DNA of 53,995 bases, counting the filler, from Jimgerdemannia flammicorona (taxonomy: Eukaryota), in the NCBI GenBank assembly GCA_003990765.1. It is 3 parts of 3 records of this genome, joined end to end, with 100 filler letters (N's around TTAATTAATTAA, not from the genome) between each part and the next. Parts side by side here need not be neighbours in the genome. Positions count along the whole stretch, not along the records: positions 1 to 17,937 come from RBNJ01002359.1; 2 more parts are not named here. One strand, given 5' to 3'. The position numbers and the translations under genes were made by a program. The notes under the pieces are model-generated. The model saw only the letters and a list, made by a program, of their open reading frames with translations, was not told the DNA's origin and searched no databases. Shown here one piece after another: positions 1 to 51,812 of this stretch (positions are counted from its first letter, which is position 1; every line of letters starts with the position of its first letter).

Positions 1-1109
1 GGAGACTCTGTGTGGATTACAGAAAACTCAACTCAGTCACTGAAAAGGATGCTTATCCTTTGCCCAGAATCGATGACCTTTTGGACCAGCTACAAGATGC
101 CAGATACTTCAGCAGTATGGACCTCTTTGCAGGATTCCATGAGATCCCCATGGACCCCAAGGACATTCAAAAGACAGCTTTCCTTGCTCTAGGAAAACTG
201 TTTGAATACCTCTGAATACCCTTTGGACTTTGCAATGCACCCCCCACCTTCCAGAGGATGATGAATTCAGTCTATGCCCCCTTGATCCACCACTGTTTGA
301 TTGTATACATGGATGATTCCAACATCTATTCAGCAAATTTCGAAGAACACCTGCACCACCTAGAGGAATTCTTCAAGCTCACCTGCAAGAATCACTTGAG
401 ACTGAATGCAAAGAAATGCTACTTTGGAAAACAGAAACTCGAATTCCTAAGATTTGTGGTTTCAAAAGAAAGAACTCATGCAGACCCAAAGAAAACCAAG
501 AAGATCAACAATTGGCCAGTACCCAAGACTCCAAAAGAAACACTATCATTCCTGATGCTAGTATCCTACTACAGAAGGTTCATCAAGGATTTTGCCCAAA
601 TCGCTGCCCCAATCCGAATCCTTCTCAAGAAAGGAATGACATTCAAGTGGACAGAATCACAGGAAAAAGCCTTCAGAGAACTCAAGAACTGGATGACTAC
701 AGCACCAATCCTTGTGCGCCCCAATCTGCAGAAGCCATTCATCTTGTATACAGATGCTTCCAAAGATGGCCTCGGAGCAGTTCTAGCCCAAGAAGGATCT
801 GACCAACAGCACCATATGATAGCTTATGCAAGCAGGGCTACCAATCAGCAGCAGATGAACTATGGTAGTACCAAACTGGAATGCCTTGCAGTAATATGGG
901 CAGTCACCCTGTTCAAGCATTACCTCATCGGAAAAAGGTTCACTCTGATTACAGACCATGCAGCCCTCAAATGGCTATTCAACTGCAAGGAACCTGCCGG
1001 AATTCTAGCCCGCTGGATCCTTATCCTTCAGGATTACAAAATCACCATCATTCACAAAGTAGGGAAAGCCCACAACAATGTTGATATACTTTCCTGCCAG
1101 CCCCAATGA
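1..1109 (+). pseudogene. pol: Reverse transcriptase-RNase H (family A)
   Basis: DYRKLN, YPLPRIDD, PFGLCNAP, YMDD (306-317), LYTDAS, TDHAAL; one in-frame TGA at 213-215 (likely from CGA). Confidence 0.95.
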
Positions 1110-2173
1110 ATCAGAGAAAGGGTGTCCCAAGGAACCACACCCTAAAGGAAGCTCCTCAGACCATCGAAGCACAGGAAGATCTTATCCAAAAAGAACATCA
1201 GAAAGCCCACCAAGGACAGACAAGTATAGAAGACAGAATTCGAAAACAATATCAACATTGGCCCCACCTCAGAACTCAAGTTCGGGACATCATTCAGAAA
1301 TGTGATACCTGCCAGAAGTACCAAGGAAAGAAGAACTATCAAGTCCCTCTGAAACCGATTCCCCCACCCACTCACATCTTTCAAAGATGGGAAGTAGATG
1401 TAATTGGACCTCTACCAGTTACACCAAGAAAAAACAAATACATCTTTATATTTGTAGAACATCTGACCAAGTGGCCCGAGGCTTTCCCAATGGAAATCGC
1501 AGATGCCTTAACCATTGTAGGCCTCCTCCATGGACTCACACTCAGATATGGACCTCCAGAAGAACTCATCTCTGACTGAGGCACAGAATTCATCAACAAT
1601 ATAATCACAAGTTATGCCTGAATTCACAAGATCCACCTCAAAAGGACCACATCATACCACCCTCAGACCAATGGCATGACAGAAAGAATGAACCAGACCA
1701 TCAAGAAAGGACTTGCCCAAGTCAACCCTACTAATTGGGACCTCTGCTTACCTGAGATCCTGTGGGAAATTCAAAATACCCCTGCTACTTCCACCAAACA
1801 AAAGCCATTCGAAATGATGTTTGCCAAGGAAACCAGAACTGCTGACCATGAGAATCTCGGAGACCTCCTCAAGAAGGCAGAACAGTTATGAAATCAAGCC
1901 CAAGGACAGATTATCAAAGCCCAGGAAAGACAAAAGAAGTACTATAACCAAAAACAGAAAGATCAGGAGATCAAGATTGGAGATTAAGTCTTAGTCTGGA
2001 GAAGCATGATTGAGACAAACTTTGCCGCCAAACTGGAACTAAAATGGGAAGGATCTTACCTTGTACACAATATCAGAGGAACCAGCATCTATTTAAGAAG
2101 CATGGATGGACGAACCCTGAGAACACCAGTACACATCAATTACCTCAAACTATATTTCCCCTCCACACCATGA
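1106..2173 (+). pseudogene. Stand-alone integrase ORF (family A)
   Basis: ATG overlaps the RH stop (ATGA); HQKAH...CDTC zinc finger, VDVIGP, ISD*GTEF, YHPQTNGMTER, KWEGSY; several CGA/CAA-type stops. Confidence 0.92.
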
Positions 2174-2685
2174 GCCAAAGGATTGATCAGTGCCTCCAGA
2201 CATTGGTCCTCAGCTCCTTCCAAGCCCTACCTGTTCCTCTACCCCAATTCGGCCAAGCCAATGGAAGCCCCCTTCAAAGGATCCAAGCTCATCAAGAAAA
2301 TCTCACCTTGGTCAGATGCCTACTACAAGTCCACCAACTGCAGGCCTATTATGCAATCGGTGAACAATTGCAGAACCTCCCAGCCTCAGAACAAACCTAT
2401 ATCAGAAATACTACAGGTCTGACCAGAAGAGACACTACTGCCGCAGACAGACTATACACCATTTATAAACGAAATATCACAGCCCTGATACAGGCACAAT
2501 TCTCCCTGAATGATATTCAAGGAATGAACCCTGTTACTTATCTGAGCATCATCAACTCTGTCGAAATCCTATTCCCTGAAGAAGAAGAAGAGCCCCTAGA
2601 ATGGAGTAATCCCAGTACAGACAATGAAGATGATGGAACAGGTATAGATACAGAAGCAGCCTATGCTTATTGGGATGATGACTGA
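2170..2685 (+). CDS. ORF3, 171-aa unknown protein with acidic tail, between IN and PPT
   Basis: Open frame; ATG overlaps the IN stop (ATGA 2170-2173); homologs at 13488-14007, 46480-46960 and 10438-11349. Confidence 0.8.
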   Translation: MSQRIDQCLQTLVLSSFQALPVPLPQFGQANGSPLQRIQAHQENLTLVRCLLQVHQLQAYYAIGEQLQNLPASEQTYIRNTTGLTRRDTTAADRLYTIYKRNITALIQAQFSLNDIQGMNPVTYLSIINSVEILFPEEEEEPLEWSNPSTDNEDDGTGIDTEAAYAYWDDD

Positions 2686-2712
2686 AGAATAGTCTGAGAC
2701 AGACTACTCTTC

Positions 2713-2724
2713 AGTGGGGGCTGA
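2713..2724 (+). promoter_or_regulatory. Polypurine tract
   Basis: agtgggggctga directly before the LTR TG; equivalent sequence in A2 at 13448-13459. Confidence 0.7.
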
Positions 2725-4043
2725 TGTGATAAGCCAAGATGTACCACCCAAATCATATCTTAACCAGATGACGCGAACAAGATGATGTGAATACTCAGCT
2801 TAGTAATCAGCAACTCTTGCTGCGGGAAACTGTATAAATAGCCAGACATACCAGAAAGGGTCTGTTTACCTGTACAGACTCTGTACACCGTACAGACTCT
2901 ATACACTGTACAGGTCCTGTACACCATACAGACTCTGTACACCTGCCATAAGTAGCAGATCTATAGTTAGCCACATAGTAACCAGGTAGCAACCAACTTG
3001 TATAAATTACCCCAGAGGCGAGAGTGAATAAAAACCTCAGTCCGAAATACAAACACCAAAGAAGTCTCTAAAGATTGGGCATTGGTCCCCTTTCCACTCT
3101 GGTCCACTTTCCGATATAAAGAAGAGCCTGATACATTTTTGGTTCGCTTGCCAGATAAGCCTGAAGAATTCGAGTTTGCTGTCTAAGTTCAAGGAAGAAC
3201 TTCGCTGCCTTTGGAATTATTGTTATTGGTTTGCTTGCCAGATAAGCCTGAAGATTTCTGCTACCTTTCTTGCCACAAGCCAGTCTTTCTGATGCAACTT
3301 TGCAGTGGAGCCAGTCTACGATGTAACCCCATGCAAACGAAGCCAGTCTTTGACATAACTTGCCAAGAATCCGAGTAGTATTCCCAGTTGAAGCCGATTC
3401 AGGAAGAATCCATGCCACTCGAGTTATCCGAGTTATCCGAGTTATCCAAGTTATCCGCCGTTTCTAAGTTATCCGCTATATTCCCAGTTAAAGCCGCCGT
3501 TTTCAAGAAGTCCGCCGATTCGGGAAGGATCCGCATCATCCACCATTTCCAAGTTATCTGCATTCCCAGAAGAGCCTGATTTGTGCCTTCCGAGTTATCT
3601 GTTATTCCCAGTGAGCCTAGGAAGAATCCACGCCATATGATTCCCAGTGAGCCAAATCGAGTTATCTGCCAAATTATTAGAACGTCCCGCATAAGGAAAC
3701 TGCCATGCTACACAGAGATCATCACGCAGAAATTGCATAAGGAGAACCGCTAGATTGCCAGACCATCACACCCAGAGATTGCATACTTTTGGAGATTGTC
3801 ATGCTACACAAATTGTACCATTCCCAGTTGACCCAAGAAGGAAGCCCATTCACACACAAATCGCCACTACACCCAGAGAACCATCCCAAAAAGGAAACCA
3901 CTTGCACAGTATCCAGATCTTGACTATTATACTGCTAAACACTAAGAACATTTTGTTGCTTTTAACAAAGTAACTGGGGGCTCAAGCCAAACTACATCAA
4001 CCCCCAACCTTGTAATTTGCCTCCATTGAGCTGGCACGTTATA
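2725..4043 (+). repeat. Family A 3' LTR (about 1.3 kb) with internal 18-bp and 9-bp tandem repeats
   Basis: tgtgat...gttata (CA decayed to TA); both ends match A2 LTR 12140-13447 and the right end matches 48713; AATAAA near 3027. Confidence 0.85.
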
Positions 4044-7000
4044 ATAGGTTTATGGTACTTCTTGAGTCTGTTTCTATATACTATAGTAGGCAGTACATAT
4101 GGTCTCTGAGAGTTTTCTAAGCCAAAAGATAGTTCTCTTGATATATTATACATAGAAGAGTTCTTTCTATTTGGACTCCAGTTTTCATAACTGTAAGACT
4201 TCTACCATATTTTGATAAAGTAAGACCTTTTCTCTGATTTGAATGAGTTTTAAGGTCTTGTAATTCTTTTCTGTATTCTTTCTTATTAAAACTTATAACT
4301 TGGTAATATAATCTTCTGTCTTCTTCCTGATTTAGTATAGTCTTCAGATTTCTGAGTCAATCTATCACTAAGTTAGGTCTAGATTTATAGCTAAGGTTTT
4401 ATCAGAATCTTCTTCTCTGAAGAGCAGTTCTCTTAGGGTAAAGTATATACTCTGTGACTATATATCTTATAGGACAGAGAGGGCAGTTGAGAGGTAGTTA
4501 TCCCAAATTCTCATATATGTCTAAGATCTTGGCCAGAATTTTCTTGAGGGTCTTGTTTGTTCTTTCTATCTGTCTATTTTCTTGAGAATGATATATAGTA
4601 GTCTTGATATACTGAATCATGTATTTCTGATACATTATCTTATAGAATCTGTTGACAAATTCTATACAGTGGTCTGTAGTGATTTACCTTAGTATCTTAT
4701 AGTGGCAGATAATTTCTTGATATAGGAAGTCAGCAATAGAGAGAGTATTGACTTCTTGTAATGCTCCTGCTTCAATCCATTTAGTAAAGAGATCTACAAT
4801 AACTATAATATAGTAGTTTCCTAATAGAGTTACTGGTAGTGGTCAAATGATATCTATTACAATGTGGTGAAAGGAGATATATTCAATTCTTAATAAATTA
4901 GATATCTGGTCTCACTGATCTTATTTCTATTTTTGACACTTATCATACCCTTTAACAAATTGACATAGGTCTTCTTCTATCTTAGGCCACTATATAGTTC
5001 TTCTTACCTTATCATATATTGGTTCCTCTTAAGTATCCTTGTTCATATACTTCCTTTATTACTTGATACTTCTTATATTCAGATATAATGAGCTTTTCTC
5101 CTTTTATAAGTATGGTATTATCTAGTTCAAATTGTTTTTAAGTCTGGTTGATGATGGTGATAGTCAAGAGTTTGAGATGGTTGGATATCTTCTACTGCCC
5201 AAGATAACTAATTAATCTATAGTATAACTTCTTATTCATATTGAATAGTCTTGATGAGAGTATTTTGGAGTATTCTTGAGAGTGCATCAGTATTGGTATT
5301 AGTTCTTTCTGGATAGTATTTGATTGTACAGTTATACTCTTGCAGTCTGTAGATCTATCTAATATATATTTCTTTGGAGTTCAGAGTGTGGAATAGCTAG
5401 ATGAGAGCAGAATGGTCTGTTTGAATAGTGAAGTATTTTCCAGCTAGATAGTAGTAGAACTTATCTACTGCCCAGACTACTGCTAAGTATTTAAGCTTAG
5501 TAACTCATAGTTCTGTTCTACTCCATGGATACCTCAGCTTATATAAGATATAAGATATTTATATCTATCTTTCTTCTAAGCTAGAACTGCTCCAAGTCCT
5601 ATAGCACTTACATCTATCTGCAGAATGAACTCTAGGTTCCAATCTGGTCTTCTGAGGATAGGTGCTTGGGTCAACTTAGTCTTGAGTTTATTGAAGATTT
5701 CTTAATATTCCTTGGTCTATTCAAACTTAATCTTCTTCTTCAGTAGCTCATAGATAAATACTATAATGTTAGATTATCTTTTGATGAATCTCCTATAGTG
5801 AGAGGTCAGTCCAAAGAAGACATGGACTTCTATAGTTGTTCTGGGTCTTGGGTAGACTGCAATAGTCTCAATCTTCATAGAGTCTGAATAAATTCCTATC
5901 TAATTGATGATATATCCTAGGTAGGCAATTTCTTGAGCTACAAATGTATATTTCTTGGACTTGATGTAGAGACCATACTCCTTGAACTTCTTAAGAGCTA
6001 GCTGTATATGGTTGATATATTTCTATATAGTATTGCTAAAGAAGATTACATCATCAATATAGACAAAGAGCTATTTTCCAATTTCATTACTGAAGACTTT
6101 ATTCATCATTTGCTAAAAACTTGCTGAAGCATTGCACATTCCAAATGGTATTCATAGGTAGACATAGGTGATATCAGATATGATGAAGGCTGATTTCTCA
6201 CTGGTATCTTGAGTAAGACTGATCTGATAGAAGCCTGAGAACAGATCCAAGGTAGTGTAGTATTTGGCTTCACTTCTAAGTAGTGCTCTAAATAAGTTAA
6301 TCTGGATAGGATTCAAATCTCATCTGGATCAACTCAGATGAGATTTGAATCCCATCTAGATCAATTTGAATCAACCATTATTTTGATTTCCAAATTAGAC
6401 AATTAAATGTTTATATCAATAACTTGATGAATAATCATCCAAATTTGATGATCTTGGAGTCATTTGAAAGCCTTTAATAAGGCCATTCTAATGATATCAA
6501 GATCATTGAAATTGGATTATATATTGTCGAGATATTAAGGAAAACATTCTTTTGATGTAATTTCCAAAATTGATAAGTCAAATAATTTTCAAAATCAGTA
6601 AGTCCAATGTTTTCCTTAATAACTCAGCAATATATAGTCTGATTTTAATAATCTTGATATCATTAGAAAGGCCTTATTATGGGCCTTCAAATGATACTAA
6701 GATTATTAAATTTGGATGATTATTCATCAAGTTATTAATGTAAACATTTAATTATCTAATTTGGAAATTAAAACAATGGTCAATCTGGATGGGATTCAAT
6801 CTGAATCAATCCAAATTCAATCCAGATTAAATTGACTCATTAGGAGTACTACTTCCAAAAGTGGTAGAGATTTCTTGAATATTTAGCAAGAGCTGTCTAT
6901 CCTTCTTAGTAATTGTATTGAGCTTCTTGTAATCAACAGAGTCTTGGAGCAAACTCTCCAGGCTTGCTTTCTTTCTTTGAGGTAAGAATAATAAATGAAG

Positions 7001-12139: not shown

Positions 12140-13447
12140 TGTAATATATTTGGCTCAATGGAGGCAAATTATAAGATTGGGGGTCGGTATAGTTTAGCTT
12201 GAGCTCCTAGTTAATTTATTAAAAGCAATAAAATATTCTTGGTATTTAGTAGTATAATAGTCAAAACTAGATATTTGCAAGTAATTTGTGTGTTGATTTT
12301 CTAATTGGGATAGTTATTTGTGTGTAGCAGCAATTTGTATATATGTAAGTGATAGTCTAGAAATCTAGCAGTTTTTCTTATGTGATTTCTATATGATGAT
12401 CTTATATAGTATAGTAGATTTCTTATATATAATGATCTAACAATTTGGCAGTTTTTTTATATATAATTATCTGGCAATTTGGTGGGTTTTCTTCTTAAAT
12501 AACAGGTGATCTCTATGCAGTATAATGATTTTCAAAAATATGTAATTTCTGACAGATGACTCAATTTGGTACAGATTCTCCTAAATCAACTCACTGGGAA
12601 TTATATTGGTACAGATTCTTCTTCACTAGGAATAGATGGATAACTTGGATATTATGAATTCTTGGTAAGTTATATTAAAGACTAGCTTCATTTGCATGGA
12701 GTTATATTGTTAGACTGGCTCTACTGCAAAGTTGTATCAAATAGACTGACTTGTGACAAGATTCCTTAAAGCAGGCTCTCTGAGAATGTGGATAACTTAG
12801 AAATAGTAGTAAAGTTCTTCTTAAACTTTGGTAGCAAATCTTCAGACTTATCTGATAAGTAAACTAAAAATATAGTGGCTTATTCCTTAAGCAGCAGATT
12901 TCTCTTCAAAAGGTAGTGAAGTTCTTTCTTGAACTTGGTAGCAAATCTTCAGACTTATCTGGCAAATAAACCAAAATATAGCAGCTTATTCCTTAAGTAG
13001 AAGATTTCTCTTCAAAAGGCAGCAAAGTTCTTCCTTGAACTTGATAGCAAATCTTTAGACTTATCTGGCAAGCAAACTAAGGCTTTGTATTAGAAAGTAG
13101 ACTGGAGTAGAAAGGGGACCAATGCTCAATCTTTAGAGACTTCTTTGGTGTTTGTATTTCAGACTGAGGTTTATTTACTCTTATCTTTGGGATATTTTAT
13201 ACATTGTGGTTGCTATCTAGTTACTATGTTACTAATTATAGACTACTATTTATGGCAGATGTACAAGTTCAGCACAGATATACTGGTTCAGCACAGGTAT
13301 GTAGTTTTGGTACAGGTATATCTTGTCTGGTAGTCTGACTATTTATACAGTTTTCTGTAGCAATGGTTGCTATATCTGGTTACTATGCTAAGTGTTTATA
13401 TCATCTGACTAAGTTATAATTCAGGTGATATATTTTGGTTTGTCACA
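12140..13447 (-). repeat. Family A 3' LTR with an internal tandem repeat of about 107 bp (about 12810-13080)
   Basis: TG...CA ends; homology to 2725-4043; aagttctt recurs at about 12812, 12919 and 13026. Confidence 0.85.
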
Positions 13448-13487
13448 TCAGTCCTCACTAAAGGATGGTCTGTCCTCGGACTATCCT

Positions 13488-14007
13488 TTAGTCATCATCT
13501 CCATGTGGATAAGTATCTTCTGTAACAATATCTATTCTATCATCTTCATTATCTATACTATGGTTACTCTATTTCAGAGGTTCTTCTTCTTCTTCTGGGA
13601 ATAGGATTTCAACAGTATTGATGATGCTCAGATAGGTGACTAGATTTATTCCTTATATATACATCATACCAGGAGAATTGTACTTATATCAAAACTACAG
13701 GGTTTCATTTATAAAGGGTGTAGAATCTATCTACAGCAGTGATATCTCTTCTTGATAGTTCTATGATATTTCTGATGTATATTTGTTCTGGGGCTAGAAG
13801 GTTCTGCAATTGTTCTCCAATTGTATAATGGGTCTGAAGTTGATGAATCTGCAATAATTGTCTGGTCAGGACAAGATTCTCTTAATAAATCTGAATTTTC
13901 TAAAGAGTATTTCTATTGACTTCTCAGAATTAGAGTAGGGGAACTGGTAGTAATTGAAATGAGCTAAGGACAAGAGTCTGAAGGCAGTTATTAACTCTCT
14001 GATTCAT
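13488..14007 (-). pseudogene. ORF3 of copy A2
   Basis: MNQRVNNCLQTLVLSSFQ...FPEEEEEPLK; homologous to 2170-2685. Confidence 0.85.
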
Positions 14008-16884
14008 GATATGGGGGAAGGTATATCTTGAGACAATTGATATATACTGGTGTCCTCAGGATTCATCTATCTATACTTCTTAAATAGATGCTGATTCCTC
14101 TGATGTTATATATAAGATAAGTTTGGGCTCCAATTTGGCAGCAAAGTTTGTTTCAATTATGCTTCTCCAGACTAGTACTTGATCTTCAATCTTGATTACC
14201 GGATCCTTCAGCTTCTGGTCATAGTACTTCTTTTGTCTTTCTTGAGCTTTGGTAATCTGAACTTGGACCTGATTATATAACTGTTCTGCTTTCTTGAGGA
14301 GATCTCCAAGATTCTCATGGTCAGTAGTTCTGATTTTCTTAGCAAATATCATTTTGAATAGCTTATATTTGGTAGAGGCAGCAGGGATATTCCAAATTTC
14401 CTAAAGAATCTTGGATAAGCAGAGGTCCCAGTTGGTAGAATTGACTTAGGCAAGTTCTTTTTTAATGGTCTGGTTCATTCTTTCTATCATATCATTGATC
14501 TGAGGATAGTATGATGTGGTCTATTTAAGGTAGATCTTATGGATTTGGGTATAACTTGTAATTATGTTATTGATGAATTCTGTGCCTCAGTCAGAGATAA
14601 GTTCATCTGGAGGTCTATATCTGAGTGTAAGTCTATGGAGAAGACTTACAATAGTTAAGGCATCTGCAATTTCCATTAGAAAAGCCTTGGGCCACTTAGT
14701 CAGATATTCTACAAATACAAGAATATACTTGTTTCTTCTTAATATAACTGGTAGGAGTCTAATTACATCTACTCTCTATCTCTGAAAGATGTTGTCTAGT
14801 GGTATGATTGATTGCAGTAGTGCTTGGTAGTTCTTTCTTCTTTAGTACTTCTGGTAGATATCATATTTCTTGAGTATATCCCAGACTTGTGTTCTGAGAT
14901 TGGGTCAATGTTGGTGTATTATTCATATGTAACTTCTCCTCTATACATATTTTTCTGTCCTTGGTGGGCTTTCCAATGTTCTTTTCAGATGAGATCTTCT
15001 TATGCCTTGATGGTCTGAGGAACTTCCTTTAGAGTATGGTTTCTTAGGACATCCTTTTTCTGGTTTATTGGGGCTGGTGAAAAAGTTCATCAACATTATT
15101 GTGAGCTTTTCCTACTTTATAGATGATGGTGATTTTGTAATTCTGAAGGATAAGGATCCAGCAGGCTAGGATCCTGATAAGTTTCTTATAGTTGAATAAC
15201 TATTTGAGGGCTATATGCTCTGTGATCAGAGTGAACCTTTTTCTGATAAGATAATGCTTAAATAGAGTGATCACCCATATGACTGCAAGGTATTCTAGTT
15301 TGGTGCTACTATAGTTCATCTACTGCTGATTGATAGCTCAGCTTGTATAAGCTATTATATAGTATTGTCAGTCAGGTTCTTCTTGGGCTAGAACTGCTCC
15401 CAGGTCATCTTTGGAAGCATCTATATATAAGATGAATGGCTTCTATAGATTGGGGTACATAAGGATTGGTACTGTGGTTATGTAGTTCTTGAGTTCTTTG
15501 AAGACTTTCTCTTGTAATTCTATTCATTTATAAGGTACTTGTTTTTTTAGAAGGACTCAGATTGGGACAGTAATTTGGACAAAGTTCTTGATAAACCTTC
15601 TATAAAGGATACTAATATCAGAAATAATAGTATTTCCTTTAGGGTCTTAAGTACTGGCCAATTGTTGATCTTTTCAGTTTTCTTTAGATCTATATAAGTT
15701 TATTCTTTTGAAACTATAAATCTAAGGAATTCAAGTTTCTGTTTCCCAAAATAGCATTTCTTAGCATTAAGTCTCAGGTAGTTCTTGTGGGTAAGCTTGA
15801 AGAATTCTTCTAAGTAGTATAGGTATTCCTCAAAATTTACAAAATAGATGTTAGAATCATCCATGTATACAATCAGATAGTAGTAGATCAAGGGGGGATA
15901 GACTGAATTCATCATCCTCTAGAAGGTGGGGGGTGTATTACAAAGTCTAAAGGGTATTCAGAGATATTCAAACAGTTTTTCTAAAGCAAGAAAGGCTGTC
16001 TTTTGAATGTCTTTTGGGTCTATGAGAATCTTATGAAATCCTGTGAAAAGGTCCATACTGCTGAAGTATCTGGCATCTTGTAACTGATCTAAGAGGTCAT
16101 CAATTCTGGACAAAGAATAGACATCTTTTTCAGTGACTGAATTGAGTTTTCTGTAATTTTTGCAGAGTCTCCATCTTCTTTTCTTTGGTACAATAAGTAT
16201 AGGGCTGACCCAAGGGCTAGTTGAGGGTTGGATGACTCTATTGTCCAAGAGTTCTTGAATGTGCTCTTTTTCAAATGTCTTTAGGTAATGAGGTATTCTA
16301 TAGGAGTTCTGTCAGATAGGTGTTGCATTTTCTGTATTTATGCTGTAGTGATATGATGGGTTATATGGCAGATTGCCATAATCAGTAGTGAAGATATCTT
16401 GATATTTATTGAGAAGTTCTACTAGTTGTTGCTATTGTTGGGGTATTAATTCTTCTCCAATATTGGTGAAAGGCTCTACTATCTCCTGGGTCACAGAGGG
16501 ACCTGTCCTTTCTTCTGGGACCTTTTGCCATTTCCAATAAGTTTAGTTTATAAACTTCTCTATAAGTTCAGTTGAGAAAGAGTACCAGATGTCCTATAAT
16601 GGTTCCTTTTGACAGGATGATGATTTTCCAACTTTGGTTGATTGCTCAGGAGTGCACTGAGTTCATCTCATTAGAGAATATGTATCCTTCTATATTTAAG
16701 TATGAAATATCTTTATTTAGTTTGAAGAAGAGATTTCTGGGATTAGATGTTGTGAAGATTTTGAAGGTGGTTTGTTCTCCAGGCTTCAGGATGAGATTTT
16801 GTATAGCTTGACTGGTTGGTGATATACTTGCTAGAGAACATTTCTCTTGAGATAATTGACTTGAAGGAGATGTACTTCCTTTTT

Positions 16885-17280
16885 GTCTGAACTCCCAAAT
16901 CCTTTAGCTTGTCTTGTTTCTTTAGTCAGTTCAGAAACTTCTTGTAATTGTGGGGTCTTGACCTTCATGAAGACTGCTTGGGCAATCTTCTGTCCTCTAA
17001 TAATTCAGTACCATTCTATACTACTGTTGAGTAGGATGACCTTGATTTCACCTATATATCCTCGGTTAATAATTCCTCCTTCTATGGTTATTTTTTGCCT
17101 GGTAAGTCCAGACCTTGAGGTCAGTTAGATATAAGTTTCTTGGGGTGGCTATATGGCTAGTCTGGTTCTGATTATAAATGTTTTTTCAGGCTTGATAGAT
17201 TCATCCTCCAGACTATAAAGATTATATCCTATATCTTCTGGGTGAGCTTTGGCTAAGGGGTTGGCCTTGGGATGTAGTAG
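16885..17280 (-). pseudogene. dut: dUTPase domain (family A)
   Basis: Translation gives GYNL, SRSGL, GGIINRGYIGEI, KIAQ, RQAKGFGSS (trimeric dUTPase motifs 1-5, partly decayed). Confidence 0.9.
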
Positions 17281-17906
17281 GGTATACTGGGTAACATTAT
17301 TACTAAGTTTGGGCTGTTCTTGGGCTGAGGCTCTACTAGCAGAGAGCCTCTAGACTCTGAGGTTGAGGTGTGACCATCTGGCTCCAGTAGAGGGATCTTG
17401 GAGATAGTTGATTTCTCTTCTTCCTGTAGGGTCTAGGGCTTCCATGAAGTTGGTGGCATCTTCTGTCCATCCTTAATGAGTTGCATGTCTGATGAGAGCT
17501 AGGATGTCTTCTCCTAAATTGTAGATCTTGAGGGTCCTTCTTTCTGACTTCCTGATCTGGCTTTTTCAGATCTGACCTCTGCTATCTCCTCTCTTCAAGG
17601 TATGGATTGCAACATCATGACTGAGGTGAATCTTCTGATGTCTGCAGTCTTAGCAGTCTGGGTATCTTCTATGGTTGTAATATTCCATTGCTTGAAAATG
17701 CCATTCCTGGTTGTTGATTTCTTATATCTCAGGAATTGGTACCCATCTTGGTCATAAGTTGGGAGAAGAGTGGACCAGGGGTATAGTTCTGTTCAGGTAA
17801 AGAGATCTTATCCTCTGAATCAACTTTGCAACTTGGTGGTAACTTCTTGGAAGGTAGTTGACTGTGTAACTATATTTGGAGGTTCTGTTCTTTGGGGTCT
17901 CTGTCT

Positions 17907-17937
<31 letters not shown>

Positions 17938-18037
17938 NNNNNNNNNNNNNNNNNNNNNNNNNNNNNNNNNNNNNNNNNNNNTTAATTAATTAANNNNNNN
18001 NNNNNNNNNNNNNNNNNNNNNNNNNNNNNNNNNNNNN
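17938..18037. other. Artificial contig spacer
   Basis: 44 N + TTAATTAATTAA (stops in all six frames) + 44 N. Confidence 0.97.
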
Positions 18038-18249
18038 CAATTTGTTTAAAAACAATTTTTTTTTTTTTATAAAATTTTTACCAAAGGTAGAATTATTATA
18101 TAAAAAATTATTGGTAAATTTTTTTTTAAAAGCTATTATGATTTTAAAAGTTATAAACTTTTAAAATCTTACCTCTAAATATAGATACAAAATAGTCAAA
18201 GAGATATAGTACAGAACTAATAGATATTAAAGTATTCAGGTTTAGTTAT

Positions 18250-21200
18250 TCAAGAAATCATATTCCTGAACTAAGTCAGTAGTATTCTGGAGATTGGTTT
18301 TGAGTTCTCATATTGCATCATAGATCAGATAACCTTTTTATTTAATAAGATATTCTGGATAGCTCTTGTGGCTGTATTTGTTGAGGATTTGTTCTTAATA
18401 ATAACAGGTGTAGGTGGTTTTGTAGTTCAGTTTGGGAATAGTCCATCATCATTTTTATTATATTACTTGAGACATTGAATATTGAAGACTGGGTGGATCT
18501 TAATGGTATCTGGTAGCACTAATTTGTAGAAAGTTAGAGAGACTTGTACAATAACTTTGAATAGTCCAATAAATTTGCTATTTAGCTTTATAGGGAGTCT
18601 GTGCTTGAGATTGTCAACTCAGTATCCTTAGATATCTAGTAGAACTTTTTCTCTGATGTCAAAAGTTCTTCTTAGTAGTGCTTGTTAATATACTACAATT
18701 GTTATTTCTGAGCTCAAGATAAATTCTCAATTGTAATCTGGCTTAAGTTGTATATTCAGAGTAGGAATTCTTTAATAACTTCAAAGTAGAGAGTTCATCA
18801 GTAATTCTGAAGAGTATTTGGGTTTTATTCTATATTGGTAAAGAATAGGGTTATTCTAAGAGATACTTGTTTGCTATTATTATAGGCAAACTTGACTATA
18901 GTAAGGTATTCATATCAATTATCTTGCCTATAGAAAACATAGTTCCTTAGTATTTGTTCTAGAGTTTGATTCATTCTTTCAGTTTGACCAACAGTTTCAG
19001 AGTGAAAGGCTGTAGATAGTATAAGTTTTATTCTAAGATATATATGTTGAGCTTTTCAAAAATAGCTAGTGAATTTCAGATTTCAGTCACTAATAATGAT
19101 CTTGGAAAGACCATAATAGCAGAAGATATTATCAAATAAGAGTATAGTAATTTCAGATATTGTTGTAGTTATGTATAGCTATAGGTACAAAGTGGGCTTA
19201 TTTGCTAAGATAGTCTATAAAGACAACAATTATATCTTTTCCATTCTTGGTTTGGGATAGTTGTATAATGAAGTCCATAGAGATTTATTTCCAATTAGTA
19301 GATGATACTGAAATAGAGTAGAGTAGGCCAGGTTTTGCTAGTATTGAGGACTTATTATATTGGCAGGTATTACAGAAAGTAATATAGGTTTTTAGCTGAT
19401 CTGCCATACAGGGCCAGTAGAAGTTTTAGATAATAACTTTATAGTATTTATCAAATCCTAAATGTCTAGCTGTAAGAGCATCATAATATTTAAATAGAAT
19501 AGTCCTTCAGAGGTCTTGATTGTTTGAAATATATCATCTGTCCTTATAGTAGATAGTATTGTCCTTTAGTTGATATTGATGATATCAGAAGTACTTATCA
19601 ATATCATCACTATTCAGGATTTCTCAGAGTACTTGAGCTTCTTTATCATCAGTATACTATAATAATTTGTTCTATAATAGAGTTAGTAACCAAGATGAGA
19701 GTTTGTATAACTTCTTTAATTAGTGATCTAGAAATTATATCAGCAATAATATTCTCCTTATAAGAGTAATACTAGATTTCATAGTTAAAATTGATGAGAA
19801 CTTTTATCTATCTGACTTATTTTTGGAAAAGAATAGCCTGGGTCTTGATATTGACTAATGATTTGTAGTCTATCAATATAGTGAAGTATACTTCTTTAAG
19901 ATATGGTTACTACTTGATCAGAGTGTCTATGATGGCTAACATTTTCTTCTCATATATTATATAGTTGATTTTAACATCATTGAACTTATGAGAGTAGTAA
20001 GCCACAGGGTATCCTTCTTACATGAGTACTGCTCCAAGAGCTAGATCAGAGATATTAGTAATAACTTCTATTATAGAGTAGGGTTTGCTACTTGAAGTAC
20101 TGAAGTAATTATCAAGTTATCTTTCAGTACTTGAAGGGCTATATCTTGTTCAGATCCCCAATTTACAAGATTGTTGAAGTCTTTTTCTTACTTTGTAGTC
20201 TAGGGCTGTTCTTCTTTTTTACTATACTTGGTTATTTAAGTAAAGACAGTAGCAATTTTGACCAAGTTTGCAACAAATTGCTAGTAATAGTTTACTAGTC
20301 TCAGGAATGACTGGAGGTCTTTCAATTTCTTGGATCTGGGCCATTCCTTAATTGTGGAGATTTTGCTGGGGTCTACTTTGATTCTATTGAGAGTGATAAT
20401 ATATCTGAGAAATTAAATTTCCTTCATATTTGCTAAGTTTCACAAAGAGTCAATTTTCTCAGAGCTTCAGTAGTATGAGTTCAAGATATTCAAGATATTC
20501 CTCCAGGGTTTTGCTGAAGACCAAGATATCATTAATGTAGACAATAACAAATTTGTCTAAGTATGGGTGTAAGATGATATTCATCAGTATCTGGAAGGTT
20601 GTAGGAGTATTAGTTAAGCCAAAAGGCATAACTAAGAACTTGAAATATCTATAGTGAGTTCAGAAGGTGGTTTTGTAGATATCTTCTTTTATGGCAATTT
20701 GTTAGTAACTATTTCATAGGTCAAAAGAACTTATGAATTGTGGGTTAGTAAGCCTATCAAATATCTCATTGATTCAGAGTAGTGGATAACAGTTCTTGAT
20801 GGTCTGTTTGTTGAGATCTCAGTAATCAATATATATTTGCAGGTCTCCCCCTTTCTTGACAACAAAGAGAACTGGTATACTATATGATAATATACTAGGA
20901 CTAATGAATTCTTATTCTAGAAGTTCATCAATTTCTTTCTTGAGTATATCAATTTCTCTTGGAGATATGTAATAGATTGACTTGAAGGCAGACTTGACAT
21001 CTGAGATAGTCTTGATGATATGGTCAACTGCTTGTTTAGGTGATAGGCTCTTCAGAAGTTTCTTTAAGAATATGTTTTGAAATTTCTGAAGTAAGGATCT
21101 AACATGGTCATTAACTTTGAAAAAATCTTCTTCAAGGTTCTCAGGTTTGTCTTTGAATAGTCAAATAGAGATAGTAAAGAGAGAGCATTTCTTAGCTAGT

Positions 21201-25780: not shown

Positions 25781-25879
25781 CTTACACTAATATAATCAAC
25801 TATAATATCTTCATTGACAACTAGTAGCTTTATAAAGTCAGAGCAATAATTGATCTGAATATCCAAAAGATATAAATTA

Positions 25880-28800
25880 TCTACTGAGGATAGAAGATAT
25901 GGATCTCCATTAATATCAATAAAGGAGTATTCCCTGAAATAGAGGAAGAAAAAAGTGAGTAAGAAGAGGCCTATATAGTAACTATTCAGAAAAAGAAGAA
26001 AGTTGGATAGATCAGTAAAGAGAACTGGTACAAGAAGATTATTAAAGAATATATACTACAAGAAGTCTGCCCTTATAGGATCAGAATATACTGCATAGAG
26101 CATATTAATAACTGCTATCAGTGTTCCAACACAATCAAGAAGATCTACTATAAAAGAAGATAGAAGATCCTTGAGAAACAGATAAGAGAAGAGAAAGAGG
26201 AGAAAGAGGATAATGAACCACCAGTTCTTTTGGAAGATAGTGATGATGAAGAGATCAAGGTCAAGATTTGAAAAATCCATCTTGATGTAGTTCTATCAGA
26301 ATATAAGTCAGAGAATATAGCTGAAATAGTTATTGCTATAGTAGAAGAAACTATACTCAAGTCCTAGACAACTACCCTACTTATAACTGATCTAGAGATA
26401 ACTATTCCAAAAGACCATATTGGAATCCTTAAGACAAGAAGTAGTCTGACCAAGAGTGAGATTACTATCAAAAGAGAAGTCATTGATTCAGATTACATTA
26501 GAGAAATACTACTCATTACTAGAAACTACAACTCTATGATTCCATTTTCAATCAAGAAGAACTGACTAGCACAGATATTAATCTTCCTAGTTTTTCAGCC
26601 AAAGATTATAGAAGTCAAGAAGTTTGAGAAAACAGAGAGAGAAAGGAAGAGATTTAGATCTACAGAAGAGGAGTATTTGCTAGTACTAAGATTACCAAAC
26701 TGGACCACAAGAAGGAGGAAACTACAAATAAGCATAGCTATACTATTGGAGATAAATTCTTACTCAAGAAGGAACTCAAGAAGACCCTCTATGAATTCAA
26801 GGGTATCCTAGCCACAGACTTCAAGGATATTAAGGGAAAGACTCTATACTACTATCATAATATAGATATAGGAGATACTGAACCAATCTATCAAAAAGCA
26901 AGACCAATACTGCCTGCCTACTATGAATAGTTCAGAGAAGAAATCAAGTAGATAGAAGAAGCTAGTATCATTAAAGAAGTCAGTAGTTCTTAGGTTTCAC
27001 CAGTTATACATACTAGTTCTGAAAAAAGAAAGCAAGCCAGAAGAATTTGCCCCAAGGCTCTGCACTGATTACAGAAAGCTCAACTTGGTTATCAAGAAGG
27101 ATTGTAAGTTACTACCTCTCATTAGCAACATTCTTGTAACCTTGGGAGATAAAGTACAATACTTTAGCACTTTAGACTTATATTCAGAATTCTATCAAAT
27201 TAACCTCACAGAAGCAGCAAGCAAGAAGTCAGTCTTCATTACTCCAGACAGAACTTATATCTATCTATGAATATCATTTGAAATGTACAATATATCAGCA
27301 AGCTTTCAGTGAATAATGAACAAAATCTTCTACTATAATATAGGAAGATAGATGATAGCTTATGTGGATAATGTTATCATCTATAACAAGACACCAGAAG
27401 AACAACTGCAGTATATCCAGCAGATGATAGAGAAGCTAAGGAAGTATGGTCTTTATATTAAGCCCAAGAAGCATAAGTTTGCAAAAATTGAGTTCTCTTA
27501 TTTTGCCCATATTATTAACTGAGATGGAATACATACAGACTCTCTCAAGATTCAAGCAGTAGTAGTATACTCAAGGCCCAATACTGTCACTGAAGCCTAA
27601 GCCTTCATGGGACTTATCTCTTACTACTGCAGATTTATCAAAGGATTCTCCAACATTGCAGGCCCAATCTATAAACTCAATAAGAAGAATGTTAAGTTCC
27701 AATGTACTGGCAGACAATAAAAATTATTTGATGAACTCAAGATTAGACTGACCCAAGCATCTATCCTCAGAAGACCTGATTGAACTCAGGAATTTATCCT
27801 ATAAACAGATATAAGTACATAAGGACTAAGAGCAGTCCTGGTCTAAAAGAAAGACAAAGTAGAATATATAATTATATATCTCAGCTGAGAAACCCAAGAA
27901 GCTGAAAAAGAGTATGAATCCTATAAGTTAAAATATCTTATAGTTATCTGGGCTATAGAGAAGTTCTACTACTATCTTATGGGAAGATACTTTATTATTT
28001 AGATAGATCACTCAGCTCTCACTTAGCTACTAACTACTGGGCAATCTAAAGGAATCTATGCTAGATAGATTATAAAGTTGCAAGCCTATGATGTAACTAT
28101 CATACATCACTATGGAAGAACTAATACTAATATAGATACCCTCTTACAGATACTCCAAAGAACCCTCAATCAGCAAATCAACTATGAATAAGAAACTCTA
28201 CTATAGAATTATCACCTATTGGGAACAGTAAAAGATACCCCAATATCTAGAAGAATAGATACAAATGATCATCAATAGAACATGGAAACAATTTGAGACT
28301 GATGGAGAAATAATAAAGAAAGAAAAGCTACTAGTTATATCTAAACATAAAAAGAAGCAAGTAATGAAATCAGTATACAAACTTGGCTATCTAGGAGGAA
28401 CAAATATATATAATAAAGCAAAAACAACAATGTGATAGCCAGAAATAGAGAAAGATATCAGATAATTTGTCAAGACCTGTAATAAATATCAGAAACAGAA
28501 ATAAGACTAACAAAATCAAACCCTCAGATCAGCATACATAGAACTAGTACTCTTTATACATATTGCAATTAACATAATTGATCCTCTACTCTTGACTTTG
28601 ACTAGCAACTGATACATTATTATCATCATAGATCTTTTTATAAAATGGATAGAGGCAGGACCTCTTAAAGAAGCCAATACACAGTCAATTGCTGATTTCT
28701 TTTACAAAGAAATCATCTGTCAATTCAAGACTCTATTGTAAGTAATTATAGAGAGAAACAAAATTCATGAACTATTCTTTGAGATTCTCTACAAGAATTA

Positions 28801-29090
28801 TAAGATCTAGTATATTTGAACTATAATCTATTACCCTCAGAGAAATAGATAAGCAGAAAGGACCAACAAGAATCTCAAGAATATTATCACTAAGATCTGT
28901 GATAATTATGAAAACTGAGATCACTATCTGCCAATAGCATTATCTGCTCTTTGAAATATCTGATCACAAAGTACCCATTTAACCCTCAAGAGATGCTTAT
29001 TTGGAGAAGAAAGTTCTCAAGGAATCTTATTGTCCAATAGAGATACTATATGGAAATATATAGATATAAAGATATAGAGACTATATCAAA
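25880..29090 (+). mobile_element. Family B fragment B3 (end of PR, dUTPase, RT, RH, most of IN)
   Basis: Colinear with about 42970-46180, with many transition-derived stops. Confidence 0.92.
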
Positions 29091-29091
29091 C

Positions 29092-30194
29092 TACTTCTCT
29101 CTGATACATATGATTCATTTTATACAAACTTCTGACAATACTTTTTATGACAATTCAGAGAAAAGGTACTATTAACATATCTTCAAGCAAGAGTTCTGAT
29201 GGGTGTGCTGGATTAGATAGACCTGGGACATTTAGCTAGCAATATGTGGAAAGGGATTATAGCCGACTCTTTTGGAGATATAAATGATGGGGAGAGCACT
29301 AGAGAGTGACCAATATCTAGTAGAAATGGGAGAGAATCTGGGCCTCTAAGATTTGCTGACAAGGTGAAAGAGGGTGGATGGCTGGTGAGTGCTCAGACTA
29401 GTATAGCTGAAGGGAAGAATAAGGCTTACCTGGGGAGAGCAAGAGGTTCTTTGTCTAGGAGAGCAAGTATAGGGGCAGAAGGGGTAGTGGCTGGAGACAG
29501 TGGGGTGACTACTGATAGAGATATAATGGCAAATCTGAAAAAAAAAAATATATATATATATAATGGCTGATGGTAATACCATACAGGAGAACTGATAGGG
29601 GTAGAGGAATCTGATAGATAGTGTAATAGGCCTGCAGTGGCCCTATTACTCAAGAAATCAATCTTAGAGCTTACTATCATATTATGCTTCTAAGGCTTAG
29701 CAGTGATAGCAAAGATGATTCTGGAGCTGATCTCAAAGCAAATGACTGGGGCTGCCTCAGTGAAGTTCTTGAAGGAACTTGAGGGGATAGAGGTGAGCTT
29801 TGAGGAGACTACTCCCTTAGAGGTAGTATTGAAGGTAAGGTTGACTATGGGTGAGATAGTAATTCTAATAACTCACTGTCTGAGATGAGACCCCAGAGTG
29901 GTCTAGCAAGTGCCCACAGTAATGATAGTTGAGATGAGGAGAAGGGTGGAAGAGACTATAGCTGAGTATGGCAAGATGATCAATATTGATTTTTAGATCT
30001 GGGAGGGGACTTTCTTCAGGATGAGAGATGTAGATATCAGACTCTGGCTAGCTAGAAAGAAGGCTATAGAGAAGTTAAGGAACTGGCCCTCAGTACTGAT
30101 ATAGGAGATATTATCTGTAAGATAACAAGAGTGAAGGAGAGTATAGAGAAGGAGGAGAATTTGGTAGAGGCACTGGAGGAGCTTAGTAGATGGG
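29092..30194 (+). mobile_element. Older LINE 5' UTR/ORF1 fragment
   Basis: LLKKSILEL, MIAKMILEL...GAASVKFLK, homologous to LINE ORF1 at 30750-30900. Confidence 0.8.
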
Positions 30195-30279
30195 ACACAC
30201 CTTTCACTAGTAACATTCAGGTGACACAAGACTCAGACAACACTTTCAACAGCATTTTTAGTGAAAGGTGACTAACAAT

Positions 30280-32198
30280 ATGGACAGCAACAAATATACT
30301 AGTGAGTGTGTCAGCCAGGGGGGCAGTAGTGCCTTTGACTGACAGCATGTAGAGAGGAAGAGGGGGGATGGTTTGGGAATACCAGGGCCTTCTGTGGCTG
30401 GCCATAGCACTGGTGGAGGAGGAAGAGGCAGATTGAGGCAATGTAGAGGGGAGAGGATGATCTTTGTAGACAAAATCAAGATGGGGAGAATGGCTTCTGG
30501 TCTGGATAGTTGGCTGGGTCTGGGGAAGGTGACAGTAGCTACTGTTGAGGAACAGAGAGGGGCCCCCATGGGAGAGTCAGATAGTAGGGAAGAGGGGGGA
30601 GTAGAGGCTGGAGATATGATTGCTGATGGAGCTGTGACTGGGGATCTTGCAAAAAATTCAGATGTGACAGTGGTTGGTGGTTCAGGACAGGAGGTAGGCA
30701 TGAGGCCCAGGGATCTGGCAGATGGTGTGATGAGTATGGTGTTGGCACTATTACTCAAGAAATCAAGGTCAGAATTCACCATCACATTGTATTTCCAGGG
30801 CTTGGCAGTGACTGCAAGGATGATCTTGGGGCTAGTGGCACAGGAGGTGAAGGGAGCAGCTTCAGTGAAGTTCTTGAAGGGGAAAGAAGGGGTTAAGGTT
30901 GGGTTTGAGGAAGAGGAGGCATTATTGGCAGCCATGGAGAAGGGGGTAATGGTAGGTGGGATAGTAGTCCCTATGGCCAGATGCATGTGCTGGGACCCCC
31001 GAGTAGTATAGTTGATAGTGTTGGATCTTCCTACAGTATTGAGAGAGAGGGCCAAAGAGTTGATTGTAGAGGCAGTCAAGGAATATAGGGAGATTATAGA
31101 TGTCAGGTTCAAAGTATGGGAGGGCACAGAGCTCAGAACTAGTGACATCAACATCCAGGTGAGGCTGGCTGGAAAGGAGAATATGGGGAAGACAAGGGAC
31201 TGGCCAGTGACTCTGAAGTGGGGACCGGTGAAGTGCAAGGTCTCGAGGGTGAAAGGGACTCTGGAAGAGGAGGAGGATTTGCTAGAGACTCTTGAGGATC
31301 TGGCAGGAGCAGTCGAGAGGAGGAGATTGACCTAGAAGGAGTATGAAGCCAAGACAGTGGTGGAAATAGTAGATGGGAAGAGGGTCAGGATGGACTGAGC
31401 AGCCTGAGAGAAGTTGCAGGGGAGGTGAATCCAGAAAGAGCTGCTGGAGAAGTTGGGTGGCAGTAGGAGTAGCAGTAGTATAGGGGAAGGGGGAGCTGGA
31501 TTGCATGAGAGTGCCTAGGTGGGGAAACATAGGATAACCCAAGGTGGGGCCCAGGGTGGATCAAGAGAGGAGAGACAGGGTGGCATGGAGATAGATGCAG
31601 AAATGAGCAAGAAAGTACACCCTCAGCATGGTGTCCCAGGTGAGGCAGGAGGGGAGGAGAAACTACTGGATATACCAGAAGAGGAGTAGGATGAGTCAGT
31701 GAGGAGGAGCACTTTGGTGGACCCTGAGGTGGGGGTTGAACAGATTGCCCAGAGTGTGGCAGAGGTAGTGGATGAGGAGAAGTAGCTGTGGAAGACTCTG
31801 GAGGGGGTGGCAGCAGAGGAGCTGGGGGGAGAGGACTTTCAGGTTATAGAAGAGAGGCATTGGGAGGAAATTCTTTGTGGTGCAGAGGTATCAAGGAAAG
31901 TTAGGAACAAGATTCTGGCAGTACTCTTAGAATCAGTTGAATATCAAGTGGATGATCAGAGAGAGGAGGAACTTCAGGTAATTGCGAATGAATAGGCAGT
32001 ATTCTTATGGAGATCAAGGAAGGGATTGGAGAAGTGGAGAGTGGTCTGTGCCCATTATTGAGTGGAGATGGAAGTGGTGGATGGGGTGGAATATCAAGAA
32101 ATTTTGAGGTATTGGATGCTCAGGCTATAGTAGAAGGTGACCTAGAAGCAGAGAGGCACTTGGATCTGACTGGGGATGAGATGAGCATAGAATACTAG
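30280..32198 (+). pseudogene. LINE ORF1
   Basis: Colinear with 49863-51782; multiple stops. Confidence 0.85.
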
Positions 32199-32229
32199 GC
32201 TGGGTTCTCAAATTCAAACATTATTCAAT

Positions 32230-35200: not shown

Positions 35201-35863
35201 GGGGGACCTTTGGCCTGAAACATAGCAGAGGGTGGAGATTGGTGAGGAGTGGGACTGGAATGGTCTTTGGCCTTGGAGCAAGCAGGTGATATAGTGGCTT
35301 CCCTCCAAGTTTTGGGTGGTATGGTGGTGGTTTCTAAGACAGAATGTGATGTTGAACTATTGATCTGGGCACTTGGTGGCAGATGGCAAGTTTGAGTATG
35401 AGGAATGTATAGATGTTAGGCAGGAGAGGGCAGTGATATAAATGCCTGAACATTGGCTTGACGAGTGTGATATCCTAGGGGAGTTTTGGTGCTACATTGC
35501 AGACTGGTTAGGGCTGTGAGCCCTGGTGGGGAGAGAAGGGGGGAGATAGGGAGACCTCTGCCAAAGGCTAGTGGGAGGGGTTGGAGACAAATGGCTGACC
35601 CTGGGTTGGGCTCTGACTATTTGGATTAGGCTGGCCAGACATTGGTTACATGTATTTGAAGAGGGTCAGCAGGTTGGAGTTAGGGCTAGGGTGGCACAAT
35701 GGAAATGACTATTACTGGACATTTTGAATGGCTGGTGGAGAGGGTGGGGACCAGGTGGGAGAAGCCAATGGAGTTTGGTAAATTGTATTTGCTGGAAAAG
35801 TGGAGGGAGGATTCAGGTAGTGGGTGGCTGGGTTGTCCTCTGACAGAGAGAGATAGAGGGTAG
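32230..35863 (+). pseudogene. LINE ORF2 (APE endonuclease-RT-C-terminal zinc finger remnant)
   Basis: SLNVNGLRG, SDH, NWRPIMLLN, QGDPLS, FADN, YLGI, KGGL, EHWLDEC; 3' end approximate. Confidence 0.9.
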
Positions 35864-51782: not shown

Positions 51783-51812
51783 ATTGTGATATCCCTACCA
51801 ACATTATTCAAT

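Follow-up and report, generated by a model that had tools for sequence, protein, structure and literature searches.

The window considered here is a stretch of 53,995 nucleotides from the fungus Jimgerdemannia flammicorona (assembly GCA_003990765.1), in which three parts are joined end to end by filler, and its first 3216 bases hold the 3' two-thirds of a Ty3/gypsy-type retrotransposon, cut at the window edge. In this element, copy A1 of what is termed family A, the integrase (IN) occupies a frame of its own, which meets the reverse transcriptase (RT)-RNase H (RH) frame in an overlapping stop and start codon; a second copy, A2, lies on the minus strand. The features on which the argument turns are as follows.

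3..1109, plus strand: RT-RNase H frame of A1, its 5' part cut by the window edge; the TGA at 213-215 is specific to this copy
1106..1109, plus strand: ATGA stop/start overlap, composed of the IN ATG (1106-1108) and the RT-RNase H TGA (1107-1109)
1106..2173, plus strand: integrase cistron of A1, a single frame of 355 codons that is -1 to the RT-RNase H frame and is closed by TGA 2171-2173
13011..17920, minus strand: A2, a second family member in which transitions have caused heavy decay; an assembly gap truncates its 5' part

At the A1 junction, which reads ...CAG CCC CAA TGA, the TGA closes the RT-RNase H frame (open reading frame, ORF, 258..1109) and the IN frame opens at the ATG one base back, that is, in the -1 frame (ORF 1106..1579). 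The RT-RNase H C-terminus is ...NVDILSCQPQ, with the stop three codons past the LSR-type motif (here LSC); this motif ends at 1098, so that any frameshift mutation would need to lie within 1099-1109. On the stop map the IN frame is closed by TGA 1082-1084, and the next ATG in that frame is the one at 1106. Pfam places RVT_1 (1e-08) and RT_RNaseH (4.7e-38) on the upstream ORF (258-1106); the downstream ORF (1106-1576) matches Integrase_H2C2, zf-H2C2 and, weakly, rve. Read through four copy-specific point stops (1577, 1619, 1889 and 1985, where the metagenome relative L001, introduced below, has Arg or Gln codons), the A1 integrase extends from 1106 to 2173 without a change of frame and carries the HHCC, DDE-core and GPY/F-type motifs; the codon at the upstream TGA 213 is likewise CGA (Arg) in L001. 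The first-pass annotation of this DNA had described an RNase H end in CCC CAA TGA overlapped by a -1-frame IN ATG, and ORFs and Pfam domains on both sides of the junction bear this out.

Aligned along 16172-13011 of the minus strand, A2 is 78.3% identical to A1 over 3236 columns. Its junction, CCCCAATAA at 15065-15068, aligns to A1 without gaps, which confirms the shared geometry claimed for this copy: a G-to-A change has removed the ATG and left a TAA stop (ATAA). The tetranucleotide ATGA itself occurs 25 times in bases 1-3000, where about 14 occurrences are expected from base composition; what lies beyond chance is taken to be its placement and recurrence, not its presence.

The order RT, RNase H, IN on one strand is that of Ty3/gypsy elements, and the closest relatives of the RT-RNase H sequence are Pol proteins. 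A1 and A2 remain alike for about 500 bases beyond a third frame, ORF3 (described below), to 3216 and 13011, and both 5' ends are missing. Domain order and sequence, and not a pair of long terminal repeats (LTRs), are the grounds on which family A is classed as Ty3/gypsy-type. The usual trait of RH and IN in one open frame is absent from A1, A2 and L001.

L001 is the best metagenome relative, with an RT-RNase H 80% identical to that of A1 and 85% identity over the first 157 IN residues. Its junction reads ...LSRMTQ, with TGA 2792-2794 and ATG 2791-2793 again forming ATGA (2791-2794), and is flanked by an RT-RNase H frame open for 494 codons and by an IN ORF that runs for 354 codons without interruption and has full rve (3.1e-11) and Integrase_H2C2 (6.7e-11) matches. 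A stand-alone protein of 354 aa, 99% identical to this IN, heads a 90%-identity cluster of 19 sequences. Stand-alone IN proteins are 99, 66, 53 and 45% identical to the L001 IN, and among longer related proteins (621-2000 aa) the best is 37% identical, this lack of hits among long proteins being weak evidence.

Contigs of four sequencing runs (X1, X2, X3 and X5, comprising three soil metagenomes and one organism, DNA or of unknown kind) were aligned to A1 at 80% likeness, yielding 1159, 42, 154 and 61 pieces; among the runs listed for bases 1-3000, none is of RNA. No insertions or deletions are listed between positions 134 and 1216, and positions 1116-1117 are covered by 16 contigs of X1, four of X3, one of X5 and none of X2. 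In X1 contigs, C>T accounts for 77 differences, T>C for 78, G>A for 58 and A>G for 48, with any transversion at 6 or fewer, and the A1 in-frame stops at 213, 1577, 1619, 1889 and 1985 are all C-to-T or G-to-A relative to L001. Because transitions dominate and the stops are point changes, family A decays by substitution, not by insertion and deletion. The in-frame stops of A1 derive from CGA or CAA codons; A2 is riddled with C-to-T and G-to-A transitions and has a G+C content of 0.32-0.38, compared with 0.44 in A1. The transition pattern in the two copies suggests deamination of methylated CpG or a process like repeat-induced point mutation. The initial judgement that a copy-specific frameshift is unlikely is upheld by A2, by L001, by the indel-free contigs and by the split relatives described in the next section.

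Split Pol across the clade

A protein search with RT-RNase H returned 134,897 proteins at E<=0.001, of which the best 150 were examined. These representatives are Pol-type proteins, 23-50% identical to the query, none exceeding 50%, and nine of them end 3-14 residues past LSR. A Rhizopus delemar RA 99-880 protein of 1387 aa comprises Gag, protease (PR), RT and RNase H and has the C-terminus ...DFLSRLGY; a second Rhizopus delemar protein (1208 aa) and one of Rhizopus microsporus (1389 aa) share this composition and this end, a Mucor plumbeus protein also terminates in ...DFLSRLGY, and Entrophospora sp. fragments occur among the clusters of proteins ending after LSR. Family A, itself from a soil fungus, has its relatives in Mucoromycota and Glomeromycotina.

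In addition, metagenome contigs were scanned by means of an RT-RNase H alignment; 565 of 593 candidate stretches were confirmed, of which the best 80 loci were kept. In 27 of these the RNase H frame closes within 25 residues past LSR (2-23 residues), 38 continue for at least 200 residues into IN, and the remaining 15, whose tails measure 26-199 residues or meet a contig end, are unclassed. On an unrooted maximum-likelihood tree built from the RT-RNase H segments ('quick' search, 81 rows), 26 of the 28 split rows (the 27 loci and A1), A1 and L001 among them, fall into one 29-row group without fused rows, supported by an SH-aLRT value of 86. The split/fused label changes three times on this tree compared with a mean of 21.3 in shuffles, none of 500 shuffles being as low. 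End branches in the split group measure 0.4-1.1 changes per site, which indicates that the split trait is old; on this unrooted tree its changes may be either gains or losses.

The frames on either side of the stop are open in many of these loci: 859 and 426 aa in L006, 688 and 423 in L013, 544 and 411 in L059, 521 and 405 in L045, at least 687 and 451 in L010, and at least 397 and 542 in L063, with an upstream frame of 1099 aa in L002. Altogether, ten split loci have IN ORFs of 337-542 aa downstream of the stop. The split Pol is therefore read as an old, conserved architecture of the whole clade, in which the conserved trait is the separate IN cistron and not ATGA as such.

The start of this cistron is marked by a recurrent sequence. 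Of the 27 split loci, 18 have an IN ORF headed by M-[DENQ]-x3-Y-x2-L-x2-YL; of the nine that lack the motif, five have at most 166 nt remaining past the stop, L001 belongs to a family with a shorter IN N-terminus, and in L026, L070 and L071 the absence is unexplained. Among 120 stand-alone IN proteins (194-620 aa), which include entries of Rhizophagus irregularis, Rhizophagus clarus and Entrophospora candida, 72 show exactly the motif from residue 1 onwards, and many more start with a close variant of it. In fused relatives the Y-x2-L-x2-YL region lies 36-100 residues past LSR, and none of the three that can be aligned has Met at the motif position. Relative to RNase H, the IN frame is 0, +1 and -1 in five loci each, and three of the five in-frame loci carry further in-frame stops ahead of the IN ORF; with three frames and extra stops, no single recoding event could fuse RH to IN. 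Initiation of IN at its own AUG, and its existence as a free protein, are strongly implied by the Met and the three frames. The first-pass annotation's claim of independent IN translation is thus supported as regards an own start; termination-reinitiation as the route is inferred only, and the further claim that IN needs its own way into the particle would follow on logical grounds.

These observations bear directly on a recoding explanation, in which a -1 frameshift or readthrough would yield an RT-RH-IN fusion and the ATG would be incidental. Family A does possess a canonical -1 heptamer, G GGA AAC, at its PR/RT boundary (L001 1322-1328), its IN is in the -1 frame, and L019 and L023 have IN in frame with a single stop between. 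The RH/IN overlap of 22-25 nt (A1 1085-1109; L001 2770-2794), however, contains no X XXY YYZ heptamer in the zero frame, so that the slippery site expected of programmed -1 frameshifting is found in neither A1 nor L001; the three frames are equally common, most of the in-frame cases are interrupted by further stops, and the IN Met is conserved. Recoding is accordingly held to be highly improbable.

Two simpler accounts were also considered. Reassignment of a stop codon was rejected, as TGA, TAA and TAG are all used to close the RNase H frame across the split loci. A short intron fusing RH to IN was set aside, given that the overlaps leave it no room without deletion of the LSR motif and that a fusion needs no conserved Met.

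A further explanation holds that the junction is a shared defect, that is, that a frameshifted, IN-less master was copied while other elements supplied IN in trans. A one-base loss in the CCCC run at 1101-1104 of A1 is conceivable and would produce the observed geometry; A1 and A2 are themselves dead copies; and an in-frame TGA inside the dUTPase is common to L001 (849-851) and A2 (17007-17005, minus strand), from which it follows that family copies can share an apparently disabling feature. Such a defect would nevertheless have to be reconciled with intact IN ORFs past the stop in ten diverged loci, with the depth of the trait as measured by the end branches, with its occurrence in several named fungal genera, with the use of all three stop codons, and with a Met retained at a fixed motif position, which a dead linker would not preserve. 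It is given very little credence.

Possible routes to a free integrase

The distance between the RNase H stop and the IN start varies across the clade. Counted from the first base of the stop, the IN ATG lies upstream by overlap at -11, -11, -5, -5, -5 and -1 nt (the last being family A) and otherwise at +2, +5, +27, +31, +33, +42, +51, +77, +78, +79, +90 and +113 nt, the near-identical L015 and L016 both being at +51. In 8 of 19 distinct elements the AUG is thus upstream of the stop or no more than 11 nt away from it, and in the others it is 27-113 nt downstream; overlap or closeness of stop and AUG, as expected of a termination-reinitiation cassette, is present. Ten spacers of 24-110 nt (591 nt in total) contain 0-20% G and, in nine of the ten, 34-56% A. 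They hold a single ATG, compared with 4.69 expected from base-composition shuffles (203 of 5000 shuffles being as low), a modest depletion (about 0.04) that rests largely on their poverty in G.

Termination-reinitiation on the full-length RNA is considered the most likely route to IN, and is favoured because the AUG always lies near the stop, because the spacers are nearly free of competing AUGs, and because the AUGA/UAAUG device works in fungal viruses. Translation of RT-RNase H would end three codons past the LSR motif, and ribosomes finishing it would remain on the full-length RNA and restart at the nearby IN AUG, in family A perhaps with the help of a hairpin 9-47 nt upstream. IN output would be a fraction of the RT level, and the free IN would probably join the particle or cDNA complex by binding, not as part of Gag-Pol. 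Across the clade, the place of the RH-IN linker found in ordinary elements is taken by a stop codon and a conserved initiator Met, which overlap or are set apart by a short spacer poor in G (-11 to +113 nt).

For the reading as a whole, in which the Pol of family A is split, IN is a cistron of its own starting from AUGA, the split is an old trait of the clade and termination-reinitiation is the most likely route, a probability of roughly 0.5 appears appropriate. The broader proposition that the clade makes free IN by restart and never within Gag-Pol, its dose set by reinitiation efficiency and its recruitment by binding, is put forward more tentatively.

The principal competitor is translation of IN from its own subgenomic or spliced mRNA, with a 5' end just upstream of the IN AUG. 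Subgenomic or spliced RNAs serve env in retroviruses and errantiviruses and Pol in foamy viruses, and the spacers (24-110 nt), being A-rich, G-poor and nearly free of ATG, resemble short fungal 5' leaders; the variable stop-start distance and the lack of a clade-wide RNA structure upstream of the stop would also fit. On the other hand, 8 of the 19 elements would need a transcript that begins within the coding region of RH, none of the loci seen has a distance above 113 nt, and a conserved splice or promoter signal was not noticed, although no systematic search for one was made. This route is regarded as possible, but doubtful.

Internal ribosome entry at an A-rich, unstructured spacer or junction, independent of both cap and termination and acting on the full-length RNA, would likewise suit the composition of the spacers, and folding upstream of the stop is weaker in split than in fused loci (mean -6.1 vs -10.5 kcal/mol), the lower minimum free energy of the fused loci (p 0.0002) going with their composition. 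Elements with overlapping stop and start, including family A, lack any spacer, however, and what precedes the AUG of family A is a predicted stable hairpin instead of an open tract. Internal entry is hence viewed as rather unlikely.

Returning to termination-reinitiation, the structure that might assist it in family A is the following.

1059..1097, plus strand: predicted hairpin with an 8-bp outer and a 4-bp inner stem, at -47 to -9 from the IN AUG

In L001 the corresponding hairpin (2744-2782) has a predicted energy of -20.4 kcal/mol and z-scores of -4.68 (51 nt), -1.91 (100 nt) and -2.30 (120 nt). In the three copies of family A, two of the 12 pairs have changed on both sides and still pair, and one of 36 cells is broken. 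The hairpin may be a cis element for stop and restart, and is offered as a lead only. No downstream structure is seen in family A (z +0.35 and +0.47).

Several considerations weigh against the favoured reading, in addition to the dUTPase stop shared by L001 and A2, the dead state of A1 and A2 and the modest depletion of ATG in the spacers. As regards the tree, the group support of 86 is not starred and comes from a 'quick' search; the split rows L062 and L071 fall outside the group; and, inside it, L080 runs for 74 residues in frame with an IN-N-like motif, and L008 and L009 run off their contigs. Better-preserved copies with RH and IN in one open frame, named in the first-pass annotation as what would refute it, were looked for and none was found, but the Logan contigs are short and do not prove that fused copies are absent. 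As regards structure, the hairpin of A1 alone is weak (z -1.31 at 100 nt, -0.15 at 120 nt), three copies carry no statistical power, the hairpin arms encode conserved Gly-Lys and Leu-Ser codons, and a search across the clade revealed no common structure upstream of the stop (mean z -0.37 for 23 split vs -0.31 for 32 fused loci, p 0.79). As regards mechanism, reinitiation past an ORF of hundreds of codons needs special signals, and spacers of up to 113 nt are longer than in the viral cases cited below and would suit the short 5' leader of a subgenomic RNA equally well.

Other open reading frames and the rest of the window

Beyond the integrase, family A carries a further frame that begins in the same manner.

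2170..2685, plus strand: ORF3, 171 codons, -1 relative to IN; the ATG (2170-2172) and the IN stop together form a second ATGA

No Pfam family was found for ORF3, Pfam being the sole homologue search. Its frame in A1 has an upstream in-frame ATG at 2044; A2 retains the ATGA at 14007-14004 (minus strand); and in L001 (ORF3 at 3729-4100) the IN stop forms ATAA, but the frame remains open from a different ATG further upstream, located within the Trp codon of the IN GPY/F motif. By eye, ORF3 is about 60% identical between A1 and L001 and less conserved than IN.

Upstream, the G GGA AAC heptamer of L001 is in the zero frame and precedes the stop of the ORF on the dUTPase side by 52 nt, within an overlap at 1307-1382; the RT frame is -1 relative to that ORF and has no ATG in the overlap, and the corresponding site in A2 is mutated (about 16540-16520, minus strand). 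Taken with the RH/IN and IN/ORF3 junctions, the PR/RT heptamer means that family A moves by -1 at each of three consecutive ORF boundaries; expression would be stepped down three times, at PR/RT, at RH/IN and at ORF3, should restart be the route. The Pfam match of the dUTPase covers profile positions 5-85 before the shared TGA and 90-128 after it, and this stop reflects either programmed readthrough or a shared defect.

Short direct repeats of the CTGTACAC-type lie at 2870-2945, downstream of ORF3 and presumably inside the 3' LTR, and X3 contigs include forms that skip 96-97 bases in this region (2846/2847 to 2944). Elsewhere the window is repeat-rich eukaryotic DNA. At about 17938-18037, two N runs around TTAATTAATTAA remove the 5' part of A2; beyond them a further gypsy-like RT-RH-IN stretch, also heavily decayed, occupies 18040-20400 on the minus strand; one further repeat family lies at 30001-36000 and 50001-52000 (copies 74% identical, GC skew 0.45-0.50, G+C 0.47-0.57), and another pairs 25786-29090 with 42875-46182 (77% identical).

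Significance and comparison with known systems

To our knowledge, the IN of all retroviruses and LTR retrotransposons studied is taken to enter the particle as the C-terminal end of Gag-Pol, an arrangement that determines both how much of it is present and where. That a large and long-lived clade has intact elements with a split Pol would indicate that this link is dispensable, and an IN made by restart and never within Gag-Pol would, if true, be an assembly logic that has not been described for any studied retrovirus or LTR retrotransposon. This raises the questions of how a free IN is dosed, how it finds the particle or the cDNA, and whether the conserved N-terminal Y-x2-L-x2-YL region serves this end. 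Moreover, should stop and restart be the route, the clade would supply dozens of natural, diverged eukaryotic signals for reinitiation after long ORFs in fungi, at spacings of -11 to +113 nt. At a practical level, annotators will list such elements as an 'IN-less Pol' and an 'orphan integrase', examples being the Rhizophagus entries for stand-alone proteins named 'putative integrase core domain protein', and copies may be misflagged as frameshifted.

The closest geometric parallels are found among fungal viruses and one LINE, and the precedents named in the first-pass annotation (HvV190S, CHV1 and SART1) are as stated in the relevant passages of PMC10275272, PMC6631646 and PMC2699510. In the victorivirus HvV190S, according to passages of PMC6631646 and PMC10275272, AUGA and a structure directly upstream, 38 nt together, are necessary and sufficient, and in hypoviruses and caliciviruses 4-20% of terminating ribosomes are stated to restart (PMC6631646). 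HvV190S and family A share a fungal host, AUGA and a downstream ORF in the -1 frame (CHV1 uses UAAUG), the downstream ORF yielding a separate protein in the virus; where HvV190S has its upstream structure, family A has a predicted hairpin at -47 to -9. HvV190S and CHV1 differ in being RNA viruses with a capsid or p69 ORF upstream, whereas family A splits Pol between RNase H and IN; furthermore, no pseudoknot is shown for family A, and the clade shows spacings of -11 to +113 nt and no common upstream structure. SART1 is closer in kind, as a retrotransposon that expresses a second cistron by stop/start coupling (UAAUG) on a bicistronic RNA, as described in part of PMC10275272, but it is a LINE, split between ORF1 and the whole ORF2, with the needed structure downstream of the stop, while the split of family A falls inside the Pol of an LTR element. 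The likeness to the stop/restart cassettes of victoriviruses, CHV1 and SART1 is thus one of geometry only, and unproven as to mechanism.

With canonical Ty3/gypsy elements (Ty3, Tf1 and the fused loci L011-L079), the split elements share the order RT-RNase H-IN, the Pfam families, and the N-terminal Y-x2-L-x2-YL and HHCC region of IN. The canonical elements differ in that their IN is the C-terminal part of Pol, reached through a linker of about 35-100 residues past LSR, and is released from Pol by protease (stated in part of PMC3248453). A full-text literature search, with subscription journals, Repbase notes and supplements outside its reach, found no description of IN as a separate Ty3/gypsy cistron; in the passages concerned of PMC5911963, PMC4427930, PMC2582038, PMC3248453, PMC5006619, PMC6839031 and PMC11943222, 'separate ORFs' refers to gag and pol, to LINEs or to DIRS elements.

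Ginger-type DNA transposons use a stand-alone gypsy-like integrase with H2C2 and DDE domains as transposase, as given in part of PMC6839031. They resemble the present elements in the free-standing H2C2 and DDE ORF and differ in that the IN of family A adjoins an RT-RNase H ORF. A reading of the IN ORF as a Ginger-type transposase was rejected for the 18 loci with the Met motif and for family A, each of which has an RT-RH ORF immediately before it (-11 to +113 nt) on the same strand.

In foamy viruses, Pol, IN included, is made from its own spliced mRNA and not as Gag-Pol, and is recruited into the particle by binding. The enzyme is thus made apart from Gag, as proposed here, with the difference that the whole of Pol is separate in foamy viruses and in family A only IN. 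By analogy, foamy-virus Pol would be the nearest conceptual precedent for an enzyme recruited by binding.

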